The notes under the pieces: model-generated
Database searches by the model: none
What the model was told of the DNA's origin: nothing
Seen by the model: only the letters and a program-made list of their open reading frames with translations
Part shown: in pieces, positions 43,698 through 63,184 of the stretch
Position numbering within the stretch: the stretch's first letter is position 1
Layout of the letters: each line of letters opens with the position of its first letter
Assembly (NCBI GenBank): GCA_964248405.1
Contig: CAXTYH010000005.1
Location: 41,631 to 105,630 of the forward strand
Direction of reading: 5' to 3'
Origin: an uncultured Bryobacteraceae bacterium
Lineage (GTDB): Bacteria; Acidobacteriota; Terriglobia; Bryobacterales; Bryobacteraceae
DNA length: 64,000 nucleotides
Program-made: the position numbers and the translations under genes

Positions 43698-45101
43698 TTG
43701 CTCGATCCGTCCAAACTAAACGAAGCCAAACCGGAAGATGTGCTCGCGGCAGCTGCGCGCGGGCACCTGGGGGTTGACCACCGGTTTCTGCATGCCATCC
43801 TGGATCGCCGTGAGCAGGCCTCACCGGCAGTCCAGGCCTTTGCCAACGGCGACCGCTCCAACGAGGTTGTCGATTTAACGCCTGAGTTGATCTCTATTTA
43901 CCGGCATTGGAAAGATCCAAAAGCCCTCCCGTTTCTACTCGGGGTGATCAAAGAATACCCGACGGAGATTCCTGATGGAGCGATCGAAGCCATTGTCGAG
44001 ATTGGCAAACCTGCACTTGAGCCGTTACTCGAATTGTACGGCCAGTTGGAAGAAGGCCAAAGCAGCGAGATCGCTTTCATTCTGGCAAACCTTGGCGTGC
44101 ACGACCCGCGTATTCTGCAGTTGTTGCTAGACCGGTTGGAGTACGATCTGGCCGATACAGCGCTGCTCTTAAGTGTGTACGGCGACCGCAAAGCGCAACC
44201 TGCTCTTGAGGAAGCGGCCGGCAATCTGGGGGCTGGTGACGTTCAGTTGAAGCGTGAGTTGACCGAAGCCATCGAGGCTCTCGACAGCGCGGATAAAGCC
44301 GGCACGAAATCGGAAGAGCAGGAACGGTTCGACATCTGGTCGCTTTACCCTGACGAAGATGATCTACCGATCGATCTTCTGGAGGAAGAGGAGCGGCTGG
44401 AGATGCTTGCGTCAGGAACGAACGATGATACCCGGGCTGCGGCTGCGGGATCGTTCTTCAATCATGAGCTGACGGCCGAAGCGAGAGCTGCGCTGTTGGC
44501 CGCAGCGACAAGCGACAAGTCGTCGGTTGTTCGCGGCCAGGCTTGGGAAGCGCTGATGAACTCGACCGAAGAGCCGGAAATTGTCCGCGCTATGTTAGCG
44601 GCGCTTCGAAATCCGGACGTACCAGCTGATGAGCGAGGCGGCCTGCTGGTCGGGTTAGCTCCTGAGGCAGACCGGAATGAAGTTCGTGAGGCGATCGGGA
44701 AGCATTACGAAACGGAGCAGGGCCGGGCCAAGGCGCTGGAAGCGATGTGGCGGTCAATGCATCCCAGTTTCCGCGACAATTTTGCCAAGCATCTGGACGA
44801 TGCCGATCTTGAAGTACGGCGCGGCGCTATTTGGGGCGTGGGTTATTACGGGCTGAAGTCGGAACTGGATAGGATCCGGAAGCTCTTCGACCACGAGGAA
44901 CTACGTTCGGACGCGCTGTTTGCCTATGCGCTTGCGATCCCTACCGAAGTGTCTAAAGGGCGCATGAAAGGTTTGTTGGCCAAGATTGAGAAAGACGCCC
45001 GCGGGTTTTCGGACCTGGAAGAAGATCTGGTGAAAGCGGCGCTGGATGAGCGATTGATGCTGGCTGGTAAAGAGCCGATGTTTGCCGGGCAGCAGGACTA
45101 G
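43698..45101 (+). CDS. HEAT/ARM-like repeat protein, unknown function
   Basis: 467 aa, acidic and all-helical in appearance, with repeated HEAT-like units (e.g. DADLEVRRGAIWGVGYYG; SVVRGQAWEALMN). TTG start. Confidence 0.65.
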   Translation: MLDPSKLNEAKPEDVLAAAARGHLGVDHRFLHAILDRREQASPAVQAFANGDRSNEVVDLTPELISIYRHWKDPKALPFLLGVIKEYPTEIPDGAIEAIVEIGKPALEPLLELYGQLEEGQSSEIAFILANLGVHDPRILQLLLDRLEYDLADTALLLSVYGDRKAQPALEEAAGNLGAGDVQLKRELTEAIEALDSADKAGTKSEEQERFDIWSLYPDEDDLPIDLLEEEERLEMLASGTNDDTRAAAAGSFFNHELTAEARAALLAAATSDKSSVVRGQAWEALMNSTEEPEIVRAMLAALRNPDVPADERGGLLVGLAPEADRNEVREAIGKHYETEQGRAKALEAMWRSMHPSFRDNFAKHLDDADLEVRRGAIWGVGYYGLKSELDRIRKLFDHEELRSDALFAYALAIPTEVSKGRMKGLLAKIEKDARGFSDLEEDLVKAALDERLMLAGKEPMFAGQQD

Positions 45102-45173
45102 CTTAGAGCGGAAAATCTGCTCCATGCGATTGCGGGCTGCGCAGAGCCAAGCCGACGCAATGGCGATGGCAGA

Positions 45174-45801
45174 CTAGAGCGTTTCCCCCCGCGTCCAGAT
45201 CAACATGGCATCGAAGTCAAATGCGGAAACCAGGATCACGTCAGTAGTTTCGGCAATCTGCTCGAGCGCACTCTGATCGAGTGTTTCACTTTCGGGCGGA
45301 GCAAAGCATCCTACTACGCCCATCAGGCCGGACGCGGGAAGTACGTTCTGAAACGCATCACGCCACGTCTCTTCGGAAAGATTCGGGCCCTGCAATGATT
45401 CGTACCACTCAATGTTCTCAATGCCCTTCGAACGGTGATACGTGAGTGGACGCTGATAGATGCGCCACCGCGCCGCTGACATGGAAGTTTGAGTCGGGCT
45501 GGACTGTATCTCGATATAGTAACGCCGCTCTTCCTTCCTTGTTTACAATTCCTCTTAGTACCTCGCATTCCCGTGCGCGATACTCAGCGTCAACCCGATC
45601 TTCGGCATGACGCTGCAATGTATTCAGCCCAAGTTTGAAGTGCATCAAATCCCACGAGCTCGCATAAGGGGGCACGAATGCAATTACCCGCCCCGCTTCC
45701 AGCGGCAACTGGCAAGGAGCGTTTCCCAACGTTGTGCCACGGGAGATTTGCAGCCGCACATAGGCTTTTGCGGCGCAACCAAGTTCTCCTTTTTGATACA
45801 T
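45174..45801 (-). pseudogene. paralog A of an unknown ~210-aa protein family, split by a +1 frameshift
   Basis: ORF 45418..45801 (N-half) and ORF 45174..45482 (C-half) together align along the whole intact 218-aa protein at 46134..46790. Relative to the copy at 46941, catgtcagcggcgcggtggcgcatc carries one extra nucleotide versus catgtcagcagcgctgggcgcata. Confidence 0.6.
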
Positions 45802-46133
45802 TCGGTTCGATTGCGATTATGAGCCTCGTCCTGTATACCAGGAAGGCTTACAGCGCCCTCGACTGCTCCCCTTGCGGCCAACTGCTCTGCCAGTAGTAGT
45901 ATCAAAAGCCTGACTCCTTGTAACAAGATGCAGGAGCGCGAAACGGCCCACTGTCGAACGCCGTGATGGCCATGTATCTGTTGATGATGAGGAGGTCGAC
46001 CGCAATGTCAAGCAGGTCGCTCCCTTCGATCGCAGACGTGGTCAACCACCACCACTTCCCGCGCAATTCCATCTCGAACGATTCAGCCATCTTCGTCCAC
46101 ACTGCCCACCTTTGAACTGCCTACTTACGGAAA

Positions 46134-46790
46134 TCAGCTTGCCCGATCTTCAGAACGTTCCCAGATTAATGTGACATCCCCGCCGTATGCACTAACCCAG
46201 ATTGCTTCAGCCTCTTGTGCGAAGTACCTCAGATCATCCTCATCAAAGCTGCGGGTTGTAAGTCGCTTCGCGCTCTCCTGTGGAAGGCTCGTCAGGACAC
46301 CAATGAAGGGCATATGCTCGACAGATCTAAGAGCAAATTCCAACTCCGAGGCGGTCAGCGGATCCCTTATAACGTAGTACACTTCGGTTCTAGTGGGGAT
46401 CACCGAACTGTATTGGTTAGGGTACTCAAGCACCCTGGTGTAAGTGGTTACTTGTCCCTCGCGCATCACCACCGTCCCATTTGGAGGAACTGTGGTGCCG
46501 TGAAAGATAGCGATATTACCTTCCTTTTTGGCCAAGAAACCAGCAAGGTACTCCGCTTCTTTTGTTCGATACTCAGAGTCTACCGTCTCACTTTCCAATT
46601 CGCCGCGATGATTAATATGCCAGGCGAAATGAAGCAATTCCCAGTTGGAAGGCACTTTCGGCAAGAATGCGAATACCGCCCCGTCTTCGATAGGCAATCG
46701 GCAGAGGAACTGCCAGAGAGAGCCTTTGGTGGATAACTCCAGCCTGATAAAGGCGTTTGCAGAAGATGCAAATACATGACGAAAGTACAT
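46134..46790 (-). CDS. paralog B, the intact member of the same unknown family (218 aa)
   Basis: Shares with paralog A the blocks A.A(Y/F)(V/I)RL..S, C.LP(L/I)E.G.V.AF.P, S.W(D/E)L(M/L)HF, VD(A/S)EYR and a C-terminal (I/V)(L/W)VSA(F/Y)..D..LIW.R.E. No known domain recognised. Confidence 0.65.
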   Translation of the reverse strand: MYFRHVFASSANAFIRLELSTKGSLWQFLCRLPIEDGAVFAFLPKVPSNWELLHFAWHINHRGELESETVDSEYRTKEAEYLAGFLAKKEGNIAIFHGTTVPPNGTVVMREGQVTTYTRVLEYPNQYSSVIPTRTEVYYVIRDPLTASELEFALRSVEHMPFIGVLTSLPQESAKRLTTRSFDEDDLRYFAQEAEAIWVSAYGGDVTLIWERSEDRAS

Positions 46791-46940
46791 ACTCTTCTAT
46801 TTGCTGGGGAGCGCTAAGATTTCAGACTCGTCAAAATTAAGTTCCTGGGGGGATGCGTCATGTGTTGCAAGTGTTCGATGTCTTCAATCGCAACCAGAGT
46901 TTGCCTGGTCTGATGGGCAGAGTAAATCAGGCTGAGACGA

Positions 46941-47294
46941 TCACAGCGTTTCCCCCCGCGTCCAAATCAATGTGGCATCGCGGTCGAATGCGGAGACGAG
47001 GATCACGTCAGTGGTTTCAGCGATCTGTTCGAGCGCACTCTGATCGAGTGTTTCACTTTCGGGCGGAGCAAAGCATCCTACTACGCCCATGAGTCCAGAA
47101 GCCGGGAGTACATTCTGGAGCGCATCACGCCACGTCTCTTCAGAAAGATTGGGCCCATGTAATAGTTGGTACCACTCAATTCTTACAACGCCCTTCGAAC
47201 GGTGGTACGTGATTGGATTCTGATATATGCGCCCAGCGCTGCTGACATGAAAGTCTCCGCTGCTCAATCTCTTCCACCATCTGAAGCGCCTCAT
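46941..47294 (-). CDS. 5'-truncated copy of paralog A (C-terminal domain only) fused to unrelated upstream sequence
   Basis: 117-aa ORF. From DFHVSSAGRIYQNPITYHRSKG onward it matches the C-half of paralog A (about 85% nt identity by eye). Nothing upstream resembles the family N-half. Whether it is expressed is unknown. Confidence 0.45.
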   Translation of the reverse strand: MRRFRWWKRLSSGDFHVSSAGRIYQNPITYHRSKGVVRIEWYQLLHGPNLSEETWRDALQNVLPASGLMGVVGCFAPPESETLDQSALEQIAETTDVILVSAFDRDATLIWTRGETL

Positions 47295-47795
47295 CGGCTC
47301 GACCGCTATTGTTAGCTCGGATTATGTCTAAGAAGCGCTTTTCAAAAAGAGTCATCAACTGGTCTGAAGGCATAGCGTGCTGCAGGTGTACTCAACTCCG
47401 AACTGCTCCATATGGTCGTGAAACTATGCCAGTGTAGAGGCCATCATGCTTAAATCTTTCTTCAGCCAGTAGATTGATTTAACCTCGCGCGTTGGCAACG
47501 CTGCTGATCAACTGTAGGGGGGGGAATCGGCGATGGCATGAAAAAACAGCCTACAGGCGAACCATATCGTCCTCCAATGATGCGGTAGAGATAACTTAAT
47601 TCATGATGGTTCTAAACGCAATAGCTAAAAACAAAACTTTCCGTAAGCATGCAGTTTGTCCGCTATCGTACACACATGAGCTGTTCGTTTAAGTGTCCGC
47701 CTTCCCCAAGCGAAACCAAAGAAGCGGGCAAATCAGTTACTAATTAAGCGACATCTTGATTTGTCAACGACACACTTACAATCCTCAACACGGTA

Positions 47796-48854
47796 ATGCC
47801 GATTCGCACCATCCTCGTCCGCGCTACTAACTGGATTGGCGATGCCGTCATGTGCCTTCCTGCTTTGCAACAGCTGCGAATCGCTTACCCCGACGCACAT
47901 ATTGCGATTCTGGCCCGACCCTGGGTGGCAGGCCTCTACGGCCGAGAGCCTTTCTGCAATGAACTCATACCTTACGAAGCGCCGAAAGGCTGGTCGGGAC
48001 TCGGGGGCAAGTGGCGTTTGGCAACGCAGCTGAGAAAGCGCCGGTTTGACTGCGCGGTGTTGCTGCAGAATGCTTTCGAAGCGGCGGCGCTCACCTGGGT
48101 GGCGAACATCCCAATCCGCATTGGCTACGATCGCGACGCACGTGGCTGGTTGCTTTCCCATCCTGTCGCTGTGCCGAAGTCGGGTGAGATACCGCGCCAC
48201 CAGCGCTTCTACTATCTGGAATTACTTAAGCGTTCGGGGCTGATTCGGAGCTACCCACAAGAGTCGATTATTAGGCTCAGTGGAGCAGGGGAGGCAGCGC
48301 TAGCCGGGCGCTTGCAACTCTCTTCAGCAGGCCTCGAAGGCGCGGTGATTGGCGTGAGCCCGGGAGCAGCCTATGGTGGCGCAAAAAGGTGGCTTCCGGA
48401 ACGATTTGCCGAGGCGGCCACCACCATCGCTCGTGAGCACAATGCAGCCGTCGCTATCTTTGGCTCCGAAGCGGAGCGCGCTATCTGCGAGATAGTTTGT
48501 GGATTGGTGGTTGCTGGAGGCTGCGCGGCCAGGAACTTTGCCGGTACTATCGCGCTTGACCGCTTTATCGAAGTAGCAGGGGCGTGCAGACTCTTCATCA
48601 CCAACGACTCCGGGCCAATGCACATCGCCTCTGCCCTAGGAGTTCCCACCGTGGCCGTGTTTGGCGCGACCGATGATGTTGCAACTGGTCCAACGGGCAA
48701 TTGGAGCCGGGTGGTACGGCATCCTGTCGAGTGCAGTCCTTGCTTGCTGCGGGAGTGTCCCATCGACCATCGTTGTATGACGCGAGTCAAAGCATCGGAC
48801 GTGGCCCAGCAAGCGTTAAACCTTTTGAGTGCAGCCGAATCGGCAAAGCGGTAA
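47796..48854 (+). CDS. waaF: ADP-heptose:LPS heptosyltransferase II (GT9)
   Basis: 352 aa. ILVRATNWIGDAVMCLPALQQLR (the NWxGD motif typical of WaaF) and C-terminal FITNDSGPMHIASALGVPTVAVFG. Confidence 0.88.
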   Translation: MPIRTILVRATNWIGDAVMCLPALQQLRIAYPDAHIAILARPWVAGLYGREPFCNELIPYEAPKGWSGLGGKWRLATQLRKRRFDCAVLLQNAFEAAALTWVANIPIRIGYDRDARGWLLSHPVAVPKSGEIPRHQRFYYLELLKRSGLIRSYPQESIIRLSGAGEAALAGRLQLSSAGLEGAVIGVSPGAAYGGAKRWLPERFAEAATTIAREHNAAVAIFGSEAERAICEIVCGLVVAGGCAARNFAGTIALDRFIEVAGACRLFITNDSGPMHIASALGVPTVAVFGATDDVATGPTGNWSRVVRHPVECSPCLLRECPIDHRCMTRVKASDVAQQALNLLSAAESAKR

Positions 48855-48855
48855 A

Positions 48856-49266
48856 TTGACTGATAAGGCAAGCTTGGACACTCGAGAGAAGATCGTACCG
48901 CTGGAGAACGCTGTCGAAAGGACCGCTACAGGAAAGTGGATTGCCGTTCTGGCATGTCTGGACCCACTCACGGCAGCGGCGGCGGCGTACTTGACCGGGA
49001 TCGCCGAGGACAATCCCGGCTGTTTGTTGTGTGTGATTGTTTTGGAAAGTGAGACTGCGCTGCTGCCGGCAGCTGCCCGCATGGCCCTTGCTGCTGCGCT
49101 TCGCTCTGTCAACCTGGTGACTTCCGCGACCGGCGAGATAGCGTACGCGGCGTTCAGCACGGGGAGCCCCGGACTGACTTTCATTGACTTGACCGAACCA
49201 GGCATTCGCTCAACGCAGGACTTTGTTGATCTGGTCATTGCTAAGCAGCGAATCGTGACGGCATGA
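48856..49266 (+). CDS. hypothetical protein resembling a degenerate cytidylyl/adenylyltransferase (RfaE domain II-like) fold
   Basis: KIVPLENAVERTATGKWIAVLACLDPLTAAAAAYL ... ARMALAAALRSVNLV follows the layout of RfaE-II (gkkiVftNGcFDilHaGHv.yL ... R..vLaaL..VD.Vv), but the HxGH nucleotide-binding motif reads LTAA. TTG 48856 is preferred to track 48829. Confidence 0.4.
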   Translation: MTDKASLDTREKIVPLENAVERTATGKWIAVLACLDPLTAAAAAYLTGIAEDNPGCLLCVIVLESETALLPAAARMALAAALRSVNLVTSATGEIAYAAFSTGSPGLTFIDLTEPGIRSTQDFVDLVIAKQRIVTA

Positions 49267-50228
49267 GCAGCACTCTGATTGTGCGATTGGGCGCAATGGG
49301 CGATATCATTCATGCGCTGCCGGCTGTGGCGAGTCTGCGGCTCAGCTTTCCGCAGCAAAAAATTGCGTGGCTGGTTGCGCCGCGCTGGATGCCGCTGCTG
49401 AAGGGCAACCCTGCCGTTGACCAGTTGCTTCCCTTTGAGCGCAAAACGCTTTCAGGCCTTCGTAGCACGGCGGCCCGCTTGCGCCAACTGCGTCCAGAGA
49501 TGGCCATCGACTTTCAAGGCCTGATACAGTCCGCTCTCGCTGGCCGTTTTGCACGGCCCCAACGCTTCTGGGGGTTCAGTCGGCAGATTGCGCGTGAGCC
49601 GGTAGCAGCATTCTTCTACAACCACCGGTTGACCCCGCCGGGGCCGCATCGGGTGCAGTCTAATTTGCAGCTGGCGGAGGCTGCCGGAGCCCATCAGTTA
49701 ACGTCACGAGCATGGCTTCCCCCCGGCGTACCTGATGGAGCTTTGCCCAATGGCCCATTTATTCTGGCGAGCCCGTTCGCTGGTTGGATGGGAAAGGAGT
49801 GGCCGCTCCCCTGCTACTCAGAATTGGCAAAACGGCTGCGCAGAGAAGGCTTGCGGTTGGTTCTGAACGTGTCCGTAGCCCGGGCCGCAGAGGTACGGGC
49901 GTTAGAGAATGTTGACGTGCACTCCTCTTCCTTGGAGGGCCTGATTCATGCCACGCGGGAAGCGATTGGCGTGGTGGGGCTCGATAGTGGCCCGTTGCAC
50001 CTGGCGGCGGCTTTAGATAAGCCCGGCGTAGCGATCTATGGCCCGACTGATCCGGCCTTGACGGGTCCATTCGGCGGCACCATCAGCGTGCTTCGAGCTC
50101 ACCAGGTCTCCTCTACCTACAAACGAAATTCCCAAATCCATGCGAGCATGCGGGCCATCACAGTCGATCAGGTCCACGCGGCGTTGATGTCCTCAGTAGA
50201 GCAGTGCAGAGCGGGTCGTGCCGTTTGA
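49263..50228 (+). CDS. GT9 glycosyltransferase, heptosyltransferase I-like
   Basis: 321 aa. LIVRLGAMGDIIHALPAVASLR and GLDSGPLHLAAALDKPGVAIYGPTDP. ATGA overlap with the preceding ORF. Confidence 0.85.
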   Translation: MSSTLIVRLGAMGDIIHALPAVASLRLSFPQQKIAWLVAPRWMPLLKGNPAVDQLLPFERKTLSGLRSTAARLRQLRPEMAIDFQGLIQSALAGRFARPQRFWGFSRQIAREPVAAFFYNHRLTPPGPHRVQSNLQLAEAAGAHQLTSRAWLPPGVPDGALPNGPFILASPFAGWMGKEWPLPCYSELAKRLRREGLRLVLNVSVARAAEVRALENVDVHSSSLEGLIHATREAIGVVGLDSGPLHLAAALDKPGVAIYGPTDPALTGPFGGTISVLRAHQVSSTYKRNSQIHASMRAITVDQVHAALMSSVEQCRAGRAV

Positions 50229-56853: not shown

Positions 56854-57423
56854 ATGAGCATTCCTTTTTCGAGATCGATGCAACGACCGAGGCGCAATGG
56901 AATCCTATCTCCCAGGCATTGGACCGTCGCACTGATTGTTTTGTGCGGCTGTAACAGTCTGACTCTAGGACAAAATACGGTTGAAGACGACGTGTTGTAC
57001 AGGCATCTGTTTCGGCATGTGGCGCATTATGATGTGTTGGCAACCAAGACAGAACTCAGCGGCAAGCCTTCTGCGCTCCGGCACGCCTTCCGTCGAAAAC
57101 TATCTCTCAATCCAAGTGAGGAGCAGGATTTGAATGAACTCGCAGCCCAATGCATGGCTGAGATCCATTTGCTCGATTTACAAGCACAGGCTATTTTGAT
57201 TACGTTTCACAAGCAGTATCCGACAAACGTCCCTCTCCCTGCCGGAGTACGTGCACCTCCCTTACCGTCCGGCTTAGCTGATTTGTCAGCTCAGCGCCGG
57301 AGGGTAGCTCTGGCCTATCGAAATCGTCTGCATGTAGCGCTTGGCGATCAAAGATTTGCCGAGGTTCATGCTGTTTTGAAACGAACTGTTGCCCCAGAAA
57401 TTTCGGTGACAACGGCTCGTTGA
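56854..57423 (+). CDS. putative lipoprotein, unknown function
   Basis: 189 aa. Lipobox-like ALIVLCGCNS. Helical remainder. Confidence 0.5.
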   Translation: MSIPFSRSMQRPRRNGILSPRHWTVALIVLCGCNSLTLGQNTVEDDVLYRHLFRHVAHYDVLATKTELSGKPSALRHAFRRKLSLNPSEEQDLNELAAQCMAEIHLLDLQAQAILITFHKQYPTNVPLPAGVRAPPLPSGLADLSAQRRRVALAYRNRLHVALGDQRFAEVHAVLKRTVAPEISVTTAR

Positions 57424-57458
57424 AGTCAGACTCCCTTGCAGACAGGAGCTTACCTATT

Positions 57459-57947
57459 ATGACTATGCAAAAATTTCTCGCCTTTTCAGCGTTAGTGGTT
57501 CTCGTAGCACTGGGACTTGTCGCTCCTGCATCCGCTCAGGAAATATCAGGCTGGACATCAGTCGAATGGGACAGCAGCTCGCAGATCGTATCGGTCTATG
57601 CAGAAACTGATTTCGATTACGTTGCAGAAGGTTACTACATACCAAGGGTATCTACAACGGTCACAGATGATCAGGGCAATATCATTGCATCGCAGGTAGC
57701 CTCTGCACCACAAGATGGTGATGACACAGTGGCTGCAATTGATCTGTCGTTTCCTGGTACCCTAGGGCGGACCTACACAGCAAATTCCACACACTCAGCC
57801 AAATCGACTTCAGTAACATTTATCCCTGTCCGCTCCCTTGCCGACCCTATACACTGTACGAGGATTATTACAACTTCTGGTCATTTAGCGCCGACCCGGG
57901 AGATTACGGCTCCCAGGATGATTTCGTTGGTCCGGGACCTTTCCTAG
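57459..57947 (+). CDS. secreted hypothetical protein; possibly the N-terminal part of the downstream M15 peptidase gene
   Basis: Signal peptide MTMQKFLAFSALVVLVALGLVAPASAQE. The last ~45 codons look non-protein-like, while the frame of the next gene is already open from 57743. Confidence 0.5.
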   Translation: MTMQKFLAFSALVVLVALGLVAPASAQEISGWTSVEWDSSSQIVSVYAETDFDYVAEGYYIPRVSTTVTDDQGNIIASQVASAPQDGDDTVAAIDLSFPGTLGRTYTANSTHSAKSTSVTFIPVRSLADPIHCTRIITTSGHLAPTREITAPRMISLVRDLS

Positions 57948-58000
57948 AAGTTCGTCAACAAGTCCCTCATGTTCCTTCTACGCATAGCTTCGCAGCTGAG

Positions 58001-58612
58001 TTGCTGGCACTTCCTTGCGGAGACAGCCGAGATCAACTAAGAGCCGAATACCCGACTTTTCACGTGGCTCTGAGTCCGCTATGTTCAGACTTTGACAATA
58101 CCGTCTACACCCAGTACTTCAGCAATTTGGAACTATCTAAGAACGAAGATCCAGCATATGGCTGGACCCTTTTGACAGCAAGTATGCTCACTTACCTCGA
58201 TAACTGGCGAGTCAAATACGGCCAACCTATGACAATTAATAGCGCGTACCGGAACCCTTACCATAACTTCCACCTTTCCCAGGGAAGGCAGGGTGCTTAT
58301 AACAGTCGACACATGTTCGGGGATGCCGTTGATATCGCGAATCCAACGAGGGATTTGGGGGGCCGTGACGCGCTAATACGTGCTTTAGCTCCCAAAGGCG
58401 ATCCCACATTTAGGGACTACCTCGAGCCAATTTCTGGGCCTTGTGGAATGGGGTGCGTGCATGCCGACTGGAGAAATCATCTACAAACCTATGCTCACAC
58501 ACTGATCGCAGACATCAACTTTCAGCTTAACGCTGTCTTCGGCTTTTTAAATCGAATTGTCGAATCTCCTACGGCGAGTACCGGGGCCAAGTTCTGGGAG
58601 GTTCGAAAATGA
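58001..58612 (+). CDS. peptidase M15 (VanY/YcbK-like zinc D,D- or L,D-peptidase) domain protein
   Basis: INSAYRNPYHNF...NSRHMFGDAVDI (the SxHxxGxAxD zinc motif) and CVHADWR (the HxD motif). The TTG start is only the first start codon in a frame open since 57743. Confidence 0.75.
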   Translation: MLALPCGDSRDQLRAEYPTFHVALSPLCSDFDNTVYTQYFSNLELSKNEDPAYGWTLLTASMLTYLDNWRVKYGQPMTINSAYRNPYHNFHLSQGRQGAYNSRHMFGDAVDIANPTRDLGGRDALIRALAPKGDPTFRDYLEPISGPCGMGCVHADWRNHLQTYAHTLIADINFQLNAVFGFLNRIVESPTASTGAKFWEVRK

Positions 58613-59421
58613 ACGTAAGACAGCTAATTTCCTTCCTGCTCATCGTTGCTAGTTCCATCTTTGCGGCACCACCGGCCAGCCTTGCGGACGCTGTTCAAAA
58701 AGACCTCGAACAGTTCAAAGTCGAGGACTGGACACAACGATCTGCCGGCTTCTACGACGTGGTTCACCAAGGCGTGACGATAGAGGGCGGCCGTAGCCAA
58801 TTTCCCCCGGCGGACGGGATACTGGCGCTCCTTCGACATAACGTGGTACCAAGGCCGAAACTCTCCAAGGCGCTAATTGACCTGCTGGCCATTGAAACCG
58901 ACCTGATGTACTCAGGAAAAGGTCCTTCTTCCGAAGATTTTTCCGAATACTTCGCCGACCTGATTATGGCGGTGTCTATCCTGAAGGACAAAACCGCCAT
59001 GCCTACGTTATTTCGATGCATTAACACCGGCGGAATGGCTATGGAAGCCTTGGCAGGCTTTGGGGATGACACACTGACGACGGCGCTCAAGCTGCTTCCC
59101 TCCGACGATTGGGAGACACGACACAGTCTTTTCGACTTAATCGCTTATATGGCAGTGCCGAAGAACTTTCAAACTCTCTCTTCCGACTCTCAAAATAAGC
59201 TATTAGCCGCTCTAATCAAAGGAGCTAGCGACGCTGATTACTCCTTCCGGGTTATCGCAGCAAGTGGTCTCAGCAATTTCAGCTCACCAGAAGCAGTCCA
59301 GGTCGTGCGCAAGCTAGCCCAAGAAGACAAGTACTCGGTTACGGACGGAAAGATAACGCGTTACCCAGTACGAGAGGCTGCGGCGCAAGCGCTAGAGAAG
59401 CAGCAAACTTCTCCCTTCTAG
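58609..59421 (+). CDS. secreted HEAT/ARM-like repeat protein
   Basis: 270 aa. Signal peptide (LISFLLIVASSIFAAPPASLA), helical repeats ending RYPVREAAAQALEK (HEAT-like). ATGA overlap with the peptidase stop. Confidence 0.6.
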   Translation: MNVRQLISFLLIVASSIFAAPPASLADAVQKDLEQFKVEDWTQRSAGFYDVVHQGVTIEGGRSQFPPADGILALLRHNVVPRPKLSKALIDLLAIETDLMYSGKGPSSEDFSEYFADLIMAVSILKDKTAMPTLFRCINTGGMAMEALAGFGDDTLTTALKLLPSDDWETRHSLFDLIAYMAVPKNFQTLSSDSQNKLLAALIKGASDADYSFRVIAASGLSNFSSPEAVQVVRKLAQEDKYSVTDGKITRYPVREAAAQALEKQQTSPF

Positions 59422-59610: not shown

Positions 59611-60324
59611 TCAGACCCGGGGCGGAGTAGTAATCACGATAGCGCGCGCCGGCGCATCCGAGCGGCCGTGGTAGGAGTGTGCCTGAGACGAATCAAAGTA
59701 GACGCTATCGCCAGTCTCCAGCAGATGCTCTTCACCTTGGTACTGAATAGAGACGGCTCCCGTTAAGACGTGGATAAACTCAGAGCCGTCATGTGCATGC
59801 TCACGCGCCGAGTTGCTGTCCTGCGGAAAGTCTGCCAGATAGGCGGACATGTTCTTATCAATCGCGCCGTAGGCAAGAACTTCAAAGAAGTAGCCAGGGC
59901 AGGGCTCATCGGCGAACTCTGGGAATCGCAGGCGCTCCCCGGCTCGGGTAATCGCAAACACACGTTTGGGTCGCTTTTCACCGAAGAAGAACTCGAGCCC
60001 GACATCGAACACCATCGCGATCCGCGCCAGCGTTGGCAGAGTCGGGATCAGCTTTCCGTTCTCCAGTTGTGAGAGCATGGAAGCCGAGAGCCCAGTATGC
60101 CTGCCCAGGTCTACGAGCGCTATTTTTTTGCGCAGGCGAAGCTGTCGGAGCTTACTGCCGATATCGTAGCTGATCAGCACTCGGCGAATCATCTCCTCGC
60201 TGTGTTCAGCGGCCCGCAACTTCCTTTCATCAACGGTAACATCAGCTCCCAGAATTTCGCTCCTGCTGAGACCATCTTCAGGCGTAGTTACCAAATTGGT
60301 TTGATCCAGCATGAAGTCGTTCAT
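59611..60324 (-). CDS. XRE-family HTH + cupin domain transcriptional regulator (intact copy)
   Basis: 237 aa. IGSKLRQLRLRKKIALVDLGRHTGLSASMLSQLENGK (HTH_3), then a cupin (HAHDGSEFIHVLTGAVSIQYQGEEHLLETGDSVYFDSSQAHSY). Confidence 0.88.
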   Translation of the reverse strand: MNDFMLDQTNLVTTPEDGLSRSEILGADVTVDERKLRAAEHSEEMIRRVLISYDIGSKLRQLRLRKKIALVDLGRHTGLSASMLSQLENGKLIPTLPTLARIAMVFDVGLEFFFGEKRPKRVFAITRAGERLRFPEFADEPCPGYFFEVLAYGAIDKNMSAYLADFPQDSNSAREHAHDGSEFIHVLTGAVSIQYQGEEHLLETGDSVYFDSSQAHSYHGRSDAPARAIVITTPPRV

Positions 60325-60338
60325 AGAGGCTTAATTGG

Positions 60339-60640
60339 ATGGATTCCCAAGCCCGGCGACGGATGCAAAACCCGTACCGAAGTGAAGTGTCGGATGACTC
60401 TCTGGTAGAGCTTTGCAAGCTCGGGGATCAGACCGCATTTAGTGAATTGATGCGCCGGCATCACTCAGCAGCTCTGAAGGTTGCACTATTGATTGTTCGA
60501 GATAAGTCAGATGCTGAGGACGAGGTTCAAAATGCATTCTGGAAGCATTTGACCATATCGGTCAGTTCAGAAGTAGCGCAAGTGCTTGCCCAGGAGATTC
60601 GCAAGACGCCGCCGCGAAAAGCCGCTTTCGAGTTCCGCGA
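60339..60640 (+). pseudogene. decayed copy of the ECF sigma factor gene at 62489
   Basis: The first ~215 nt are near-identical to 62489 onward. Then come a 1-nt deletion (ggaaagc to ggaagc), a ~182-nt deletion between gttca repeats and a ~88-nt deletion between gccgccgc repeats. Regions 2.2 to 4 are lost. Confidence 0.8.
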
Positions 60641-60776
60641 AGATGTCTCCAATCAGCTTTTTTTTGAGAGTGACTCAACCCGCGCGGGCAGAGGAGCCAG
60701 ACGACCATCATCTTCGGCCTCCTGATCAAGCTCAACGACTAACACTAATCAGCGTTGCGTGGGATCACTCGCGGAT

Positions 60777-61373
60777 TCATGGCTTTGTTGCCTCACCATC
60801 TTTTACTCCGAAGTCAGGAACTCCGCCGCCTTGGCTTACTCGTACTGTCCCTATGCTGCGAGGCGTTCCAAGAATCACCGGGGATTCCCATATGACATCA
60901 ACTTCAAAATTTTCAACAAGCGCATCGCGACCCACAAATCTAGGCTCGCTTTCGAACTTCTGAATTTTTACTCTGTAATATCGGAAGTCCCTCCAAGACT
61001 GTTCGGTCCAATCGAAAAAATCCACTAAAGTCACCTTTAGGTCACCCAAAGTGAAGCGTCCGTCAAATGCCTCCCAACATTCTCCTGGTTGATTGTCAAA
61101 CCCGACATCAATACGCAGGGAAGAAAATCGTGCGTTGGAGCCGCGTCCAAGATTAGGTACAACGTGATACTCCTCTCCAAAAATATGGCCGGAATGCCCT
61201 ATTTCCGGTGCTAACCTGTCTAAAACTAACGCGTTAAAAAGCGGGAGCTTAAGCGTGTTGAACTGATCTGCCAACTCGGCATCTTTTTCCTCCCGCGAAC
61301 CCCAAAAATAAATGTTCCAAATGTCACGTAGTGCGAGGCGGTATTGCTGGACTATATCGGAAGCATAGGTCAT
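60777..61373 (-). CDS. orphan 198-aa protein, no recognisable domain (intact copy)
   Basis: Uninterrupted ORF with protein-like composition. Its duplicate at 61589..62184 differs by scattered substitutions plus one frameshift. Confidence 0.65.
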   Translation of the reverse strand: MTYASDIVQQYRLALRDIWNIYFWGSREEKDAELADQFNTLKLPLFNALVLDRLAPEIGHSGHIFGEEYHVVPNLGRGSNARFSSLRIDVGFDNQPGECWEAFDGRFTLGDLKVTLVDFFDWTEQSWRDFRYYRVKIQKFESEPRFVGRDALVENFEVDVIWESPVILGTPRSIGTVRVSQGGGVPDFGVKDGEATKP

Positions 61374-61588
61374 AAGTGTTTACCAAATAGCAGGGAGCAA
61401 CTCGTAGTCTGGGCCGGGTTCGCTAAGACCCTCCAAGCCGCCTTCGAGTTCCGCGAAGATCTCTCCAATCAGCTTTTTTGAGAGTGACTCAAACCGCCGG
61501 CAGAGGAGCCAGCAGACCATCATCTTCGGCCTCCTGATCAAGCTCAACGACTAACACTAATCAGCGTTGCGTGGGATCACTCGCGGAT

Positions 61589-62184
61589 TCATGGCTTTGT
61601 TGCCTCACCATCTTTTACTCCGAAGTCAGGAACTCCGCCGCCTTGGCTTACTCGTACTGTCCCTATGCTGCGAGGCGTTCCAAGAATCACCGGGGATTCC
61701 CATATGACATCAACTTCAAAATTTTCAACAAGCGCATCGCGACCCACAAATCTAGGCTCGCTTTCGAACTTCTGAATTCTCACCCGATAATAACGAAAGT
61801 CCCTCCAGGATTGTTCGGTCCAATCGAAAAAGTCCAGCAAAGTCACCTTTAGATCAGCCGGAGCAAAGCCTTCGTTAAATGGCTTCCAGCATTCTCCTGG
61901 TTTATTGTCGAGCCCGACATCAATAAGCACGGAAGAGAATCGTGCCCTGCAGCCGTGTGCAAGGTTAGGTACAACGTGATACTCCTCTCCAAAAATACGG
62001 CCGGAATGCCCTATTTCCGGTGCTAACCTGTCTAAAATAACGCGTTAAAAAGCGGGAGCTTAAGCGTGTTGAACTGATCTGCCAACTCGGCATCTTTTTC
62101 CTCCCGCGAACCCCAAAAATAAATGTTCCAAATGTCGCGTAGTGCGAGGCGGTATTGCTGGACTATATCGGAAGCATAGGTCAT
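61589..62184 (-). pseudogene. frameshifted duplicate of the 198-aa orphan gene
   Basis: Same ATG context (ggtcataagtgt). Loss of one nt in taaaactaac to taaaataa (about 62036) creates TAG after codon ~47. The downstream frame (track ORF 61589..61930) has its last ~70 codons identical to the intact copy. Confidence 0.75.
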
Positions 62185-62265
62185 AAGTGTTACCAAATCC
62201 CAAAGAGCAACTCGTAGTCTGGGCCGGGGTCGCTAAGACCCTCCATGCGATAGGATAGGAAACTG

Positions 62266-62474
62266 CGAGCGCTATGTTCTTGCGCAGGCGAAGCTGCCGG
62301 AGCTTACTGCCGATACGTAGCTGATCAGCACTCGGCGAATCATCTCCTCGCGTGTTCAGCGGCTCGCAACTTCCTTTCATCAACGGTAACATCGGCTTCT
62401 AGAATTTCGCTCCTGCTGAAACCATCTTAAGGCGTAGTTACCAAATTGGTTTGATCCAGCATAAAGTCGTTCAT
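62266..62474 (-). pseudogene. 5' remnant (about 70 codons) of a second copy of the XRE-cupin regulator
   Basis: Aligns to 60114-60324 with indels (gatatcgtagc vs gatacgtagc; ctcgctgtgttc vs ctcgcgtgttc). No HTH or cupin part remains. Confidence 0.75.
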
Positions 62475-62488
62475 AGAGGCTTAATTGG

Positions 62489-63127
62489 ATGGATTCCCAA
62501 GCCCGGCGACGGATGCAAAACCCGTACCGAAGTGAAGTGTCGGATGACTCTCTGGTAGAGCTTTGCAAGCTCGGGGATCAGACCGCATTTAGTGAATTGA
62601 TGCGCCGGCATCACTCAGCAGCTCTGAAGGTTGCGCTATCGATCGTTCGTGATAAGTCAGATGCTGAGGACGAGGTCCAAAATGCATTCTGGAAAGCATT
62701 TGAGCATATAGGTCAGTTCAATAAGGATGCAAAGTTCTCAACCTGGTTAACGCGTATTGTCGTGAATCAATGCTTAATGAAGCTGCGCCGCGCTCGCCGC
62801 GCTCGCTACACCTATATAGATGACATCTTAGTTGGCGAAGAGATTGTCAGCCTGGACTTGCGCGATGCGCGCCAGACTCCTGAACAGGAGTTGGGCCGTT
62901 CAGAAGTGGCGCAAGTGCTTGCTCAGGAGATTCGGAAGACGCCGCCGCTGCTCCGTAGCGTGTTTCTGCTTCGGGACGTGCAGCACCGGCCCATGCCGGA
63001 GGTAGCGCAGACACTGGGCATCTCAGTAGCCGCCGCGAAAAGCCGCCTTTTGAGAGCGCGCGCCGAACTACGCGACCGGATGCGTCGCCACTACGGCGAC
63101 ATCGGTCCGGCTACCTTGATGGCCTAG
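62489..63127 (+). CDS. ECF-type RNA polymerase sigma-70 family factor (intact copy)
   Basis: 212 aa. Region 2 (DAEDEVQNAFWKAFEHIGQF...FSTWLTRIVVNQCL) and region 4 (LRSVFLLRDVQHRPMPEVAQTLGISVAAAKSRLLRAR). Confidence 0.92.
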   Translation: MDSQARRRMQNPYRSEVSDDSLVELCKLGDQTAFSELMRRHHSAALKVALSIVRDKSDAEDEVQNAFWKAFEHIGQFNKDAKFSTWLTRIVVNQCLMKLRRARRARYTYIDDILVGEEIVSLDLRDARQTPEQELGRSEVAQVLAQEIRKTPPLLRSVFLLRDVQHRPMPEVAQTLGISVAAAKSRLLRARAELRDRMRRHYGDIGPATLMA

Positions 63128-63184
63128 GCCTTCACCCTTCGGGCGGGCACTGCTTCCCTCTGCAGTGACCCGCCTGGAAACCAA

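Follow-up and report, generated by a model that had tools for sequence, protein, structure and literature searches.

A probable orphan immunity-gene islet with relatives behind Ntox37-type toxin domains in an acidobacterial contig

The window analysed here is a 64-kb stretch of contig CAXTYH010000005.1 from an uncultured Bryobacteraceae bacterium. At 45–47 kb it carries a cluster of three related genes: an intact gene (paralog B), a gene split by a frameshift (paralog A), and a 5′-truncated C-terminal copy of an A-type allele (A′). We put the probability at roughly three in four that this cluster is an orphan immunity-gene islet of a polymorphic-toxin system, and its intact member B is likely to be a functional orphan immunity gene. 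Elsewhere, members of the same protein family are encoded directly behind Ntox37-type toxin domains, and the islet is toxin-free in the window, hence the designation orphan. A first-pass annotation made from the sequence alone had proposed, as a speculation, an immunity-gene or orphan-cassette array; the Ntox37 partner, the arrays shared with Imm50 genes, the YD repeats of one related locus and the tandem members of another all speak for that proposal.

Ntox37-type toxin domains upstream of the family

When the frameshift in A is read through, A and B share 31% identity over the full length (E 2e-28), and are therefore paralogs. Neither matches Pfam or NCBIfam, nor any PADLOC model at E ≤ 1, and protein B (218 aa) remains unannotated after the Pfam check that had been recommended for it. 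Neither a signal peptide nor a membrane segment can be discerned in its sequence. The size of the family became visible through an exhaustive profile search, which recovered at least 520 cluster representatives (50% identity clusters) at E ≤ 1e-3 and 81 at E ≤ 1e-10, mostly of 190–220 aa. A word-indexed homologue search alone suggested a tiny family, with two outside relatives for B and none for A or for the toxin partner in related locus L007. A metagenome scan added a single locus, L011. None of 79 sampled members has a Pfam match (hmmscan E ≤ 0.01).

In 10 of 15 other loci the family gene lies directly downstream, on the same strand, of an Ntox37-type C-terminal domain or its remnant. Full domains occur in L006, L007, L009/L010, L011, L015 and L017, and fragments in L016, L014, L008 and L001/L002. 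The survey of homologue neighbourhoods advised by the first-pass annotation therefore does lead to a toxin, on carriers of the RHS and type VI secretion system (T6SS) kinds. The partner domain comprises about 70–85 aa, is rich in Gly and Pro, bears the motif LHPDL...GPH[WYF]DY and is likely all-beta. Its carriers differ from locus to locus. For instance, it follows the end of the RHS core in L017 (RARWYAPGVGRFTRRDP...DPSGH), whereas it forms the C-terminus of a 379-aa signal-peptide protein in L009/L010 and that of a 320-aa protein in L015. The gene of the latter is clustered with genes for Peptidase_M91 and DUF4123, DUF4123 being a known T6SS adaptor domain. The domain constitutes an open reading frame (ORF) of 132 aa in L007 and one of 80 aa in L011, the latter 17 nt ahead of the family member, and in L006 it stands at the contig start. 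Judged by these arrangements, the partner behaves as a C-terminal cassette that is exchangeable between different delivery N-termini (RHS, an effector beside DUF4123, a signal-peptide protein).

Fragments and vestiges of the toxin were found by hidden Markov model (HMM) searches of six-frame translations. A fragment lies behind a transposase-like ORF in L016, a vestige of the toxin tail separates the two tandem family members of L014, and in L008 the N-terminal half of the toxin domain is fused to the family member. In L001 (positions 3–518) and L002 (1–486), the ORF upstream of a 66%-identical B homologue is unrelated, 5′-incomplete and without a Pfam match, and ends in a toxin-tail vestige of about 20–30 residues, GQIFDDPESRSGIYVPSK. 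This graft looks like a recombination scar.

Zhang et al. 2012 (PMC3482391) characterise Ntox37 as an all-beta domain of polymorphic toxins that has E, [KR] and Hx[DH] residues and occurs with RHS repeats. The partner domains resemble Pfam Ntox37 (PF15535) in the Hx[DH]-type motif (HPD, H[WYF]D), in the RHS C-terminus of L017, and in scores near or at the cut-off. With a gathering score of 27.8 bits, L017 lies above it (29.4 bits, E 1.2e-6) and L015 just below (27.7 bits), while L011 reaches 15.1 bits (E 0.035) and the domains of L006, L007 and L009 have no Pfam match. The acidobacterial domains (L006, L007, L009, L011) are thus divergent, mostly below threshold, and are tied to Ntox37 by custom HMMs and the motif: models built separately from two partner sequence groups cross-detect (L011 at 8.9e-5, L016 at 1.5e-3).

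The family is also found in heterogeneous or tandem polyimmunity arrays with truncated copies, as in the window itself, L003, L007 and L014. The member in L003 is flanked by Imm50 genes (E 1.4e-6 and 2.8e-14), and the array of L007 includes another toxin-like piece together with an ORF resembling Imm50. Imm50 (PF15594) is unrelated in sequence and shares arrays with the family in L003 and probably L007; it serves as a marker that these are immunity arrays. In L013 (1–2136) a family member is split (356–823 and 971–1180) between two copies of a YD/RHS-repeat segment, ...LNQTVTQGTAPSLTLAYDNATNRITTAGYGYDANGNMTASPAFGATYTYDASNR..., suggesting that an insertion or recombination took place inside an Rhs-type gene. 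In L018/L019 (8001–8965) the member P0029 is found at the border of a housekeeping region (metH, amidohydrolase, CSD); a 67-aa fragment convergent with it matches the dCMP_cyt_deam_1 and MafB19-deam (deaminase toxin) models. The homologues of three Bryobacterales metagenome-assembled genomes (MAGs) lie in three unrelated neighbourhoods; in such MAGs, L004 has a lone family gene beside a VapBC-like pair and L005 a lone gene after rpoBC.

An AlphaFold2 model of B from a 79-sequence alignment is alpha/beta, with a mean predicted local distance difference test (pLDDT) of 93.1 and a predicted template modelling score (pTM) of 0.89; that from a 6-sequence alignment was unusable (pLDDT 47.6). Foldseek searches with the model gave a best E of 0.11 and TM ≤ 0.23 in PDB (a hit being E ≤ 0.001 or TM ≥ 0.5) and a best E of 0.046 in BFVD, which is not credible, and the family profile searched against PDB sequences gave a best E of 0.31. 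The family fold is therefore confidently predicted and without a PDB match. Imm32 (PF15566) is given as the immunity protein of Ntox37 by Zhang et al. 2012 (PMC3482391). The family and Imm32 would share this partner toxin, and both are alpha+beta, Imm32 according to Zhang et al. and the family according to its predicted model. Nevertheless, the family is set apart by the absence of an hmmscan match to Imm32, for A and B at E ≤ 1 and for the 79 members at E ≤ 0.01, and appears to be an unrelated, second immunity solution for Ntox37-type toxins.

Copies, lesions and a shared tract in the islet

The islet (Table 1) stands between the HEAT-repeat gene and the lipopolysaccharide (LPS) genes, a placement borne out by the HEAT_2 and Glyco_transf_9 matches. 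The ORFs of the earlier inventory (the halves of A, the 66-aa ORF, B, the A′ ORF and 47176–47373), all on the minus strand, were found again. Its GC content is 0.512 across 45150–47795, as compared to 0.569 and 0.583 in the flanks and 0.567 in the whole window, so that the cluster is AT-richer as first described.

A and A′ form a direct repeat of 289 nt (45178–45466 = 46945–47233) with 39 mismatches. The identity of 86.5% agrees with the earlier estimate of about 85%, and the alignment has a single surplus base in A at about 45465–45468, in keeping with the +1 insertion reported before. About 22 nt of additional homology past the indel places the end of A′ at about 47255–47260; contig ends or joints occur at 47260/47261–47262 in three public runs (X2, X3 and X6). 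Twenty-six of the 39 mismatches fall on third codon positions and only 11 of 96 residues differ. This pattern shows strong purifying selection, as read from codon positions, during the divergence of A and A′, from which both would have been functional genes until recently.

Within the repeat, the longest identical run is 62 nt. Its length is as reported previously, but the coordinates then given (45261–45322 = 47049–47110) were off by 1 and 20 nt. With 39 mismatches placed uniformly, a run of at least 62 nt has P = 0.0016. A third A-type allele, seen on 45180–45370 in runs X3, X6, X8 and X10, has a different downstream flank and a loose end before 45182, and differs inside the block at 45279, 45283–45285, 45289 and 45308. 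These six differences argue that the identity of the block in A and A′ is not due to a general constraint at the nucleotide level. The gene conversion suggested in the first-pass annotation is thereby supported, and the block may be taken as a gene-conversion or recombination tract between A and A′. Inside the block, both copies contain a hairpin, GCACTCTGATCGAGTGT, with a 6-bp stem around GATC (45268–45284 and 47035–47051); sites of this type are not above chance in number in the region. A mosaic contig of run X6, A-type to 45323 and A′-type beyond, was not used as proof of a crossover, since a de Bruijn assembler may switch haplotypes at a shared 62-mer.

The reality of the lesions was examined in public runs, 13 for the region with 11 containing it, which are lichen metagenomes and runs under a single coded organism label. 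The surplus base of A is present in contigs of at least six independent runs (X1, X2, X3, X6, X8, X9) from four studies, and the truncated 127-aa ORF recurs in L012, an independent Logan contig. The contigs of X1 are identical to the window and broken at the 62-nt block. The block forms a contig of its own at about twice the local depth (60 versus 30 in X1; 35.6 versus 16 in X3), as expected from a true two-copy repeat. Divergent A-type alleles of about 87–90% identity in X6 and X10 have one base fewer at 45467 and no frameshift. In X3 (record 17), the exact C-terminal part of A′ is joined to a stretch resembling the N-terminal half of A, so that a full-length A′-type allele exists elsewhere. 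Together with A and A′, the third allele brings the A-type alleles co-existing in these lichen-associated samples to at least three. The RNA runs considered were poly-A metatranscriptomes, in which none of the sequence occurs. From the presence in many runs, the double depth and the co-existing alleles, the frameshift and the truncation are real, strain-specific lesions, and for both A-type alleles the community also contains an intact version. The doubt once raised about the frameshift and about assembly duplicates is thus removed.

The 66-aa ORF has no Pfam, NCBIfam or PADLOC match and no tblastn match in any related locus; lacking relatives, it is probably not a gene. In ORF 47176–47373, the first 40 or so codons precede the truncation junction and are of unrelated sequence. 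Pfam, NCBIfam and PADLOC are blank for it as well, and its sole other match (tblastn, related loci) is the out-of-frame A/A′ homology. A promoter and terminator scan of the spacer that follows gave nothing above chance.

Table 1. Features of the islet and of other regions of the window (position 1 is the first nucleotide of the window)
Feature	Position	Strand	Basis or remark
Paralog B, intact 218-aa family member	46134-46790	minus	ORF; family HMM score 201.8 bits
Paralog A, whole, split by frameshift	45174-45801	minus	ORFs and alignment to A′
Paralog A, N-terminal half	45469-45801	minus	family HMM E 3.5e-22, profile positions 4-114
ORF of A N-terminal half, 127 aa	45418-45801	minus	wrong frame past the frameshift, down to 45418
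Paralog A, C-terminal half with stop codon	45174-45464	minus	family HMM E 3.7e-11, profile positions 113-200
ORF of A C-terminal half, 102 aa	45174-45482	minus	ORF list
Frameshift site in A, one surplus base	45465-45468	minus	alignment GGTGG (A) versus G-GG (A′)
A′, 5′-truncated C-terminal-half copy of an A-type allele	46941-~47260	minus	repeat, 86.5-87% identical to 45178-45466; family HMM E 1.5e-11
ORF of A′, 117 aa	46941-47294	minus	ORF start is sequence unrelated to A
62-nt perfect block, copy in A	45262-45323		longest identical run in repeat
62-nt perfect block, copy in A′	47029-47090		identical to 45262-45323
66-aa ORF in the B/A spacer (332 nt)	45902-46102	minus	ORF list
65-aa ORF overlapping the A′ start in a different frame	47176-47373	minus	ORF list
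AT-richest spacer, GC 0.45-0.49	47374-47795		between islet and divergent heptosyltransferase gene
HEAT-repeat gene, 467 aa, abutting the islet	43698-45101	plus	HEAT_2 E 1.1e-14
Two heptosyltransferase genes downstream of the islet	47796-48854, 49263-50228		Glyco_transf_9
Polymorphic-toxin-like operon, GC 0.49-0.53, about 10 kb from the islet and not part of it	56854-59421	plus	
Lipoprotein-like gene, first of the operon	56854-57423	plus	homologous to first gene of L009 toxin operon, E 5e-13
Signal-peptide N-domain ORF, second of the operon	57420-57947	plus	matches N-domain of L009 toxin, E 5e-6
Open frame-2 stretch with Peptidase_M15_3	57743-58609	plus	overlaps ORF 57420-57947; no start before TTG 58001
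Signal-peptide HEAT_2 protein	58609-59421	plus	follows the M15 domain
198-aa gene	60777-61373	minus	homologous to first ORF of L003 Imm50 array, E 9e-11
113-aa truncated copy	61589-61930	minus	homologous to first ORF of L003 Imm50 array, E 9e-11

Weighing the alternatives

Several observations tell against an immunity islet. The immunity function of the family is deduced from gene neighbourhoods, and the acidobacterial C-terminal domains are linked to Ntox37 by weak scores and a shared motif. The family does not match Imm32, the immunity family listed for Ntox37. Five of the 15 related loci (L003, L004, L005, L013, L018/19) are also without a toxin, and two of these five are single genes amid housekeeping genes. 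A distant, two-domain member of 454 aa, P0026 of L009, whose C-terminal half matches the family profile weakly (E 0.017), lies amid phage-defence-type genes (TIR_2, AbiEii, STAND NTPase) on a plasmid-like contig. In addition, the HMM search found no Ntox37 sequence anywhere in the 64 kb of the window, and no toxin or toxin remnant adjoins A, B and A′; the first-pass annotation had already remarked that no toxin was visible.

Such a record could also be produced by an accessory factor of Ntox37 toxins, namely a chaperone or adaptor for folding, loading or secretion, in which case the copies in the window would be remnants of a lost toxin locus. The evidence on function is entirely positional, effectors are also adjoined by adaptor genes (DUF4123 in L015), and a protein of about 200 aa is large for a toxin domain of about 80 aa. 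However, the family gene invariably follows the toxin C-terminal domain, whereas known adaptors such as DUF4123 are upstream. The same toxin domain is accompanied by the family across RHS, T6SS-type and Sec-type carriers, so that the family tracks the toxin domain and not the secretion route. That the gene survives as an orphan where the toxin is truncated to fragments (L011, L016, L014), and in Imm50 arrays, is likewise the pattern of an immunity gene and not of a chaperone. An accessory role therefore seems improbable.

Of much the same low probability is that the whole cluster, B included, is non-functional debris, left by a selfish or hitchhiking gene whose copies are decaying. In favour of this, just one of the three copies is intact, no toxin can be seen, and relatives are lacking for the 66-aa and 65-aa ORFs. 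B itself does not fit this picture: it is full-length, scores 201.8 bits with the family HMM, is modelled at pLDDT 93, and is kept across independent samples with just a few single-base differences. Nor does the strong purifying selection seen in the divergence of A and A′ suit a gene without function.

Slightly less plausible again is a role in a self-contained system within the cell, be it a toxin-antitoxin pair or a module of phage defence, without a part in interbacterial competition. The VapBC-like pair adjoining the gene of L004 would fit, as would the setting of P0026, for L009 (1–13944) and L010 are plasmid-like (RepA_C, resolvase) and have the TIR_2, AbiEii and STAND NTPase genes and the resolvase near P0026, which belongs to the toxin operon. 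Such co-location is weak evidence, however, since mobile regions often house defence islands and toxin/immunity islets together. PADLOC models are unmatched, and the partner domain stands at the C-terminus of an RHS protein and of signal-peptide proteins, which are exported toxins.

An assembly artefact, with the frameshift a sequencing error and A′ a mis-assembled duplicate, could be imagined from a source that seems to be a metagenome-derived contig and from the breaks of other assemblies at the 62-nt block, but it is refuted by the multi-run occurrence of the surplus base, the double depth of the block, and A′ itself, which has separate flanks and differs from A at 39 positions.

The orphan immunity islet is thus the reading we retain. 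Proteins of this family (about 190–220 aa, no evident signal peptide) are normally encoded directly downstream of Ntox37-type toxin C-terminal domains delivered by RHS proteins, T6SS-associated effectors or Sec-exported proteins. If it acts as immunity proteins of other such pairs do, the family protein would neutralise the toxin domain by binding it once it has entered the cell, and the intact B would guard its host against Ntox37-type toxins released by neighbouring cells. A has been inactivated through the one-base insertion, and A′ would be the 3′ fragment of a different A-type allele that arrived or was left by recombination, the 62-nt block being the putative recombination or gene-conversion tract between A and A′. 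Low GC, non-syntenic homologues and several alleles co-existing in the community point to horizontal acquisition and an ongoing exchange of alleles.

Neighbouring genes and relation to known systems

The flanks of the islet are of housekeeping type, with pth, rpsR (S18) and rplI (L9) farther upstream beyond the HEAT_2 gene and the heptosyltransferase genes downstream. An immunity class 'Imm-HEAT' is given for Ntox34 by Zhang et al. 2012 (PMC3482391). In the window, one HEAT gene (43698–45101) abuts the islet and a second HEAT protein (58609–59421) comes after an M15 toxin domain.

This second HEAT protein ends the low-GC operon of Table 1 and is a candidate periplasmic immunity protein. The two preceding reading frames, 57420–58609, look like a single toxin gene of about 395 aa that a frameshift has split. 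Polymorphic toxins are characterised by an N-terminus that stays constant while the C-terminal toxins and the genes downstream vary. The C-terminal domain of the second gene is Peptidase_M15_3 in the window operon, in contrast to the Ntox37-like domain in L009, where a family member follows. From the shared N-domains, the organism appears to have the same kind of delivery module as that which carries the Ntox37-like domain in L009. The module may start with a lipoprotein-like gene, followed by one in which a constant N-domain is coupled to an exchangeable C-terminal toxin (Ntox37-like in L009, M15 in the window).

A second cluster of decaying paralogs, 60100–63130, was built by tandem segmental duplications (60683–60982 = 61495–61794, 97%; 60202–60501 = 62352–62651, 96%; 61223–61380 = 62034–62191, 99%). 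Besides the 198-aa gene and its truncated copy, it has partial copies of an extracytoplasmic function (ECF) sigma factor and of a helix-turn-helix (HTH)-cupin regulator.

Orphan, decaying immunity copies in a low-GC islet are ordinary for polymorphic-toxin systems. Orphan immunity arrays left by effector displacement are reported from Vibrio cholerae (PMC5361080) and, for Rhs, from Serratia (PMC10539506), and an immunity islet is described for Salmonella Typhi (PMC7400221). The islet resembles these arrays and islets of T6SS, Rhs and contact-dependent inhibition (CDI) systems, and the polyimmunity loci of Zhang et al. (PMC3482391), in its tandem small genes without an adjacent toxin. It also resembles known immunity islets in its truncated or frameshifted copies, atypical base composition and several population alleles, and in having relatives elsewhere immediately behind toxin C-terminal domains. 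Unlike them, its family is outside the catalogued Imm families and its host is apparently a lichen-associated acidobacterium, with relatives in Bryobacterales MAGs. Furthermore, the islet is not attached to a T6SS, Rhs or CDI locus and lies between ribosomal-protein/HEAT and LPS heptosyltransferase genes.

The novelty is modest: an immunity family for Ntox37 that would not be Imm32, with a predicted fold unseen among solved structures, in an orphan-islet arrangement that is itself ordinary. That a new immunity fold, to judge from the confident model and the lack of a PDB neighbour, is the second solution for Ntox37, and that the Acidobacteria have an undescribed Sec-dependent polymorphic-toxin module, is a tentative proposal that we think less probable than its opposite.

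Our study suggests a likely role for an unannotated family of at least 520 clusters at 50% identity that is absent from Pfam, NCBIfam and PADLOC. As a second immunity family for Ntox37, it would form with its toxin a pair of about 80 and 200 aa, for which the immunity structure is predicted, and which may offer a tractable entry to the activity of Ntox37. To our knowledge, little experimental work has been done on interbacterial conflict in lichen-associated Acidobacteria, and the present results document conflict genes and allelic turnover in them. If the tentative proposal of a new fold and a Sec-dependent module is true, the islet at 45–47 kb would be an acquired defence against an Ntox37 variant that circulates in the same lichen community.

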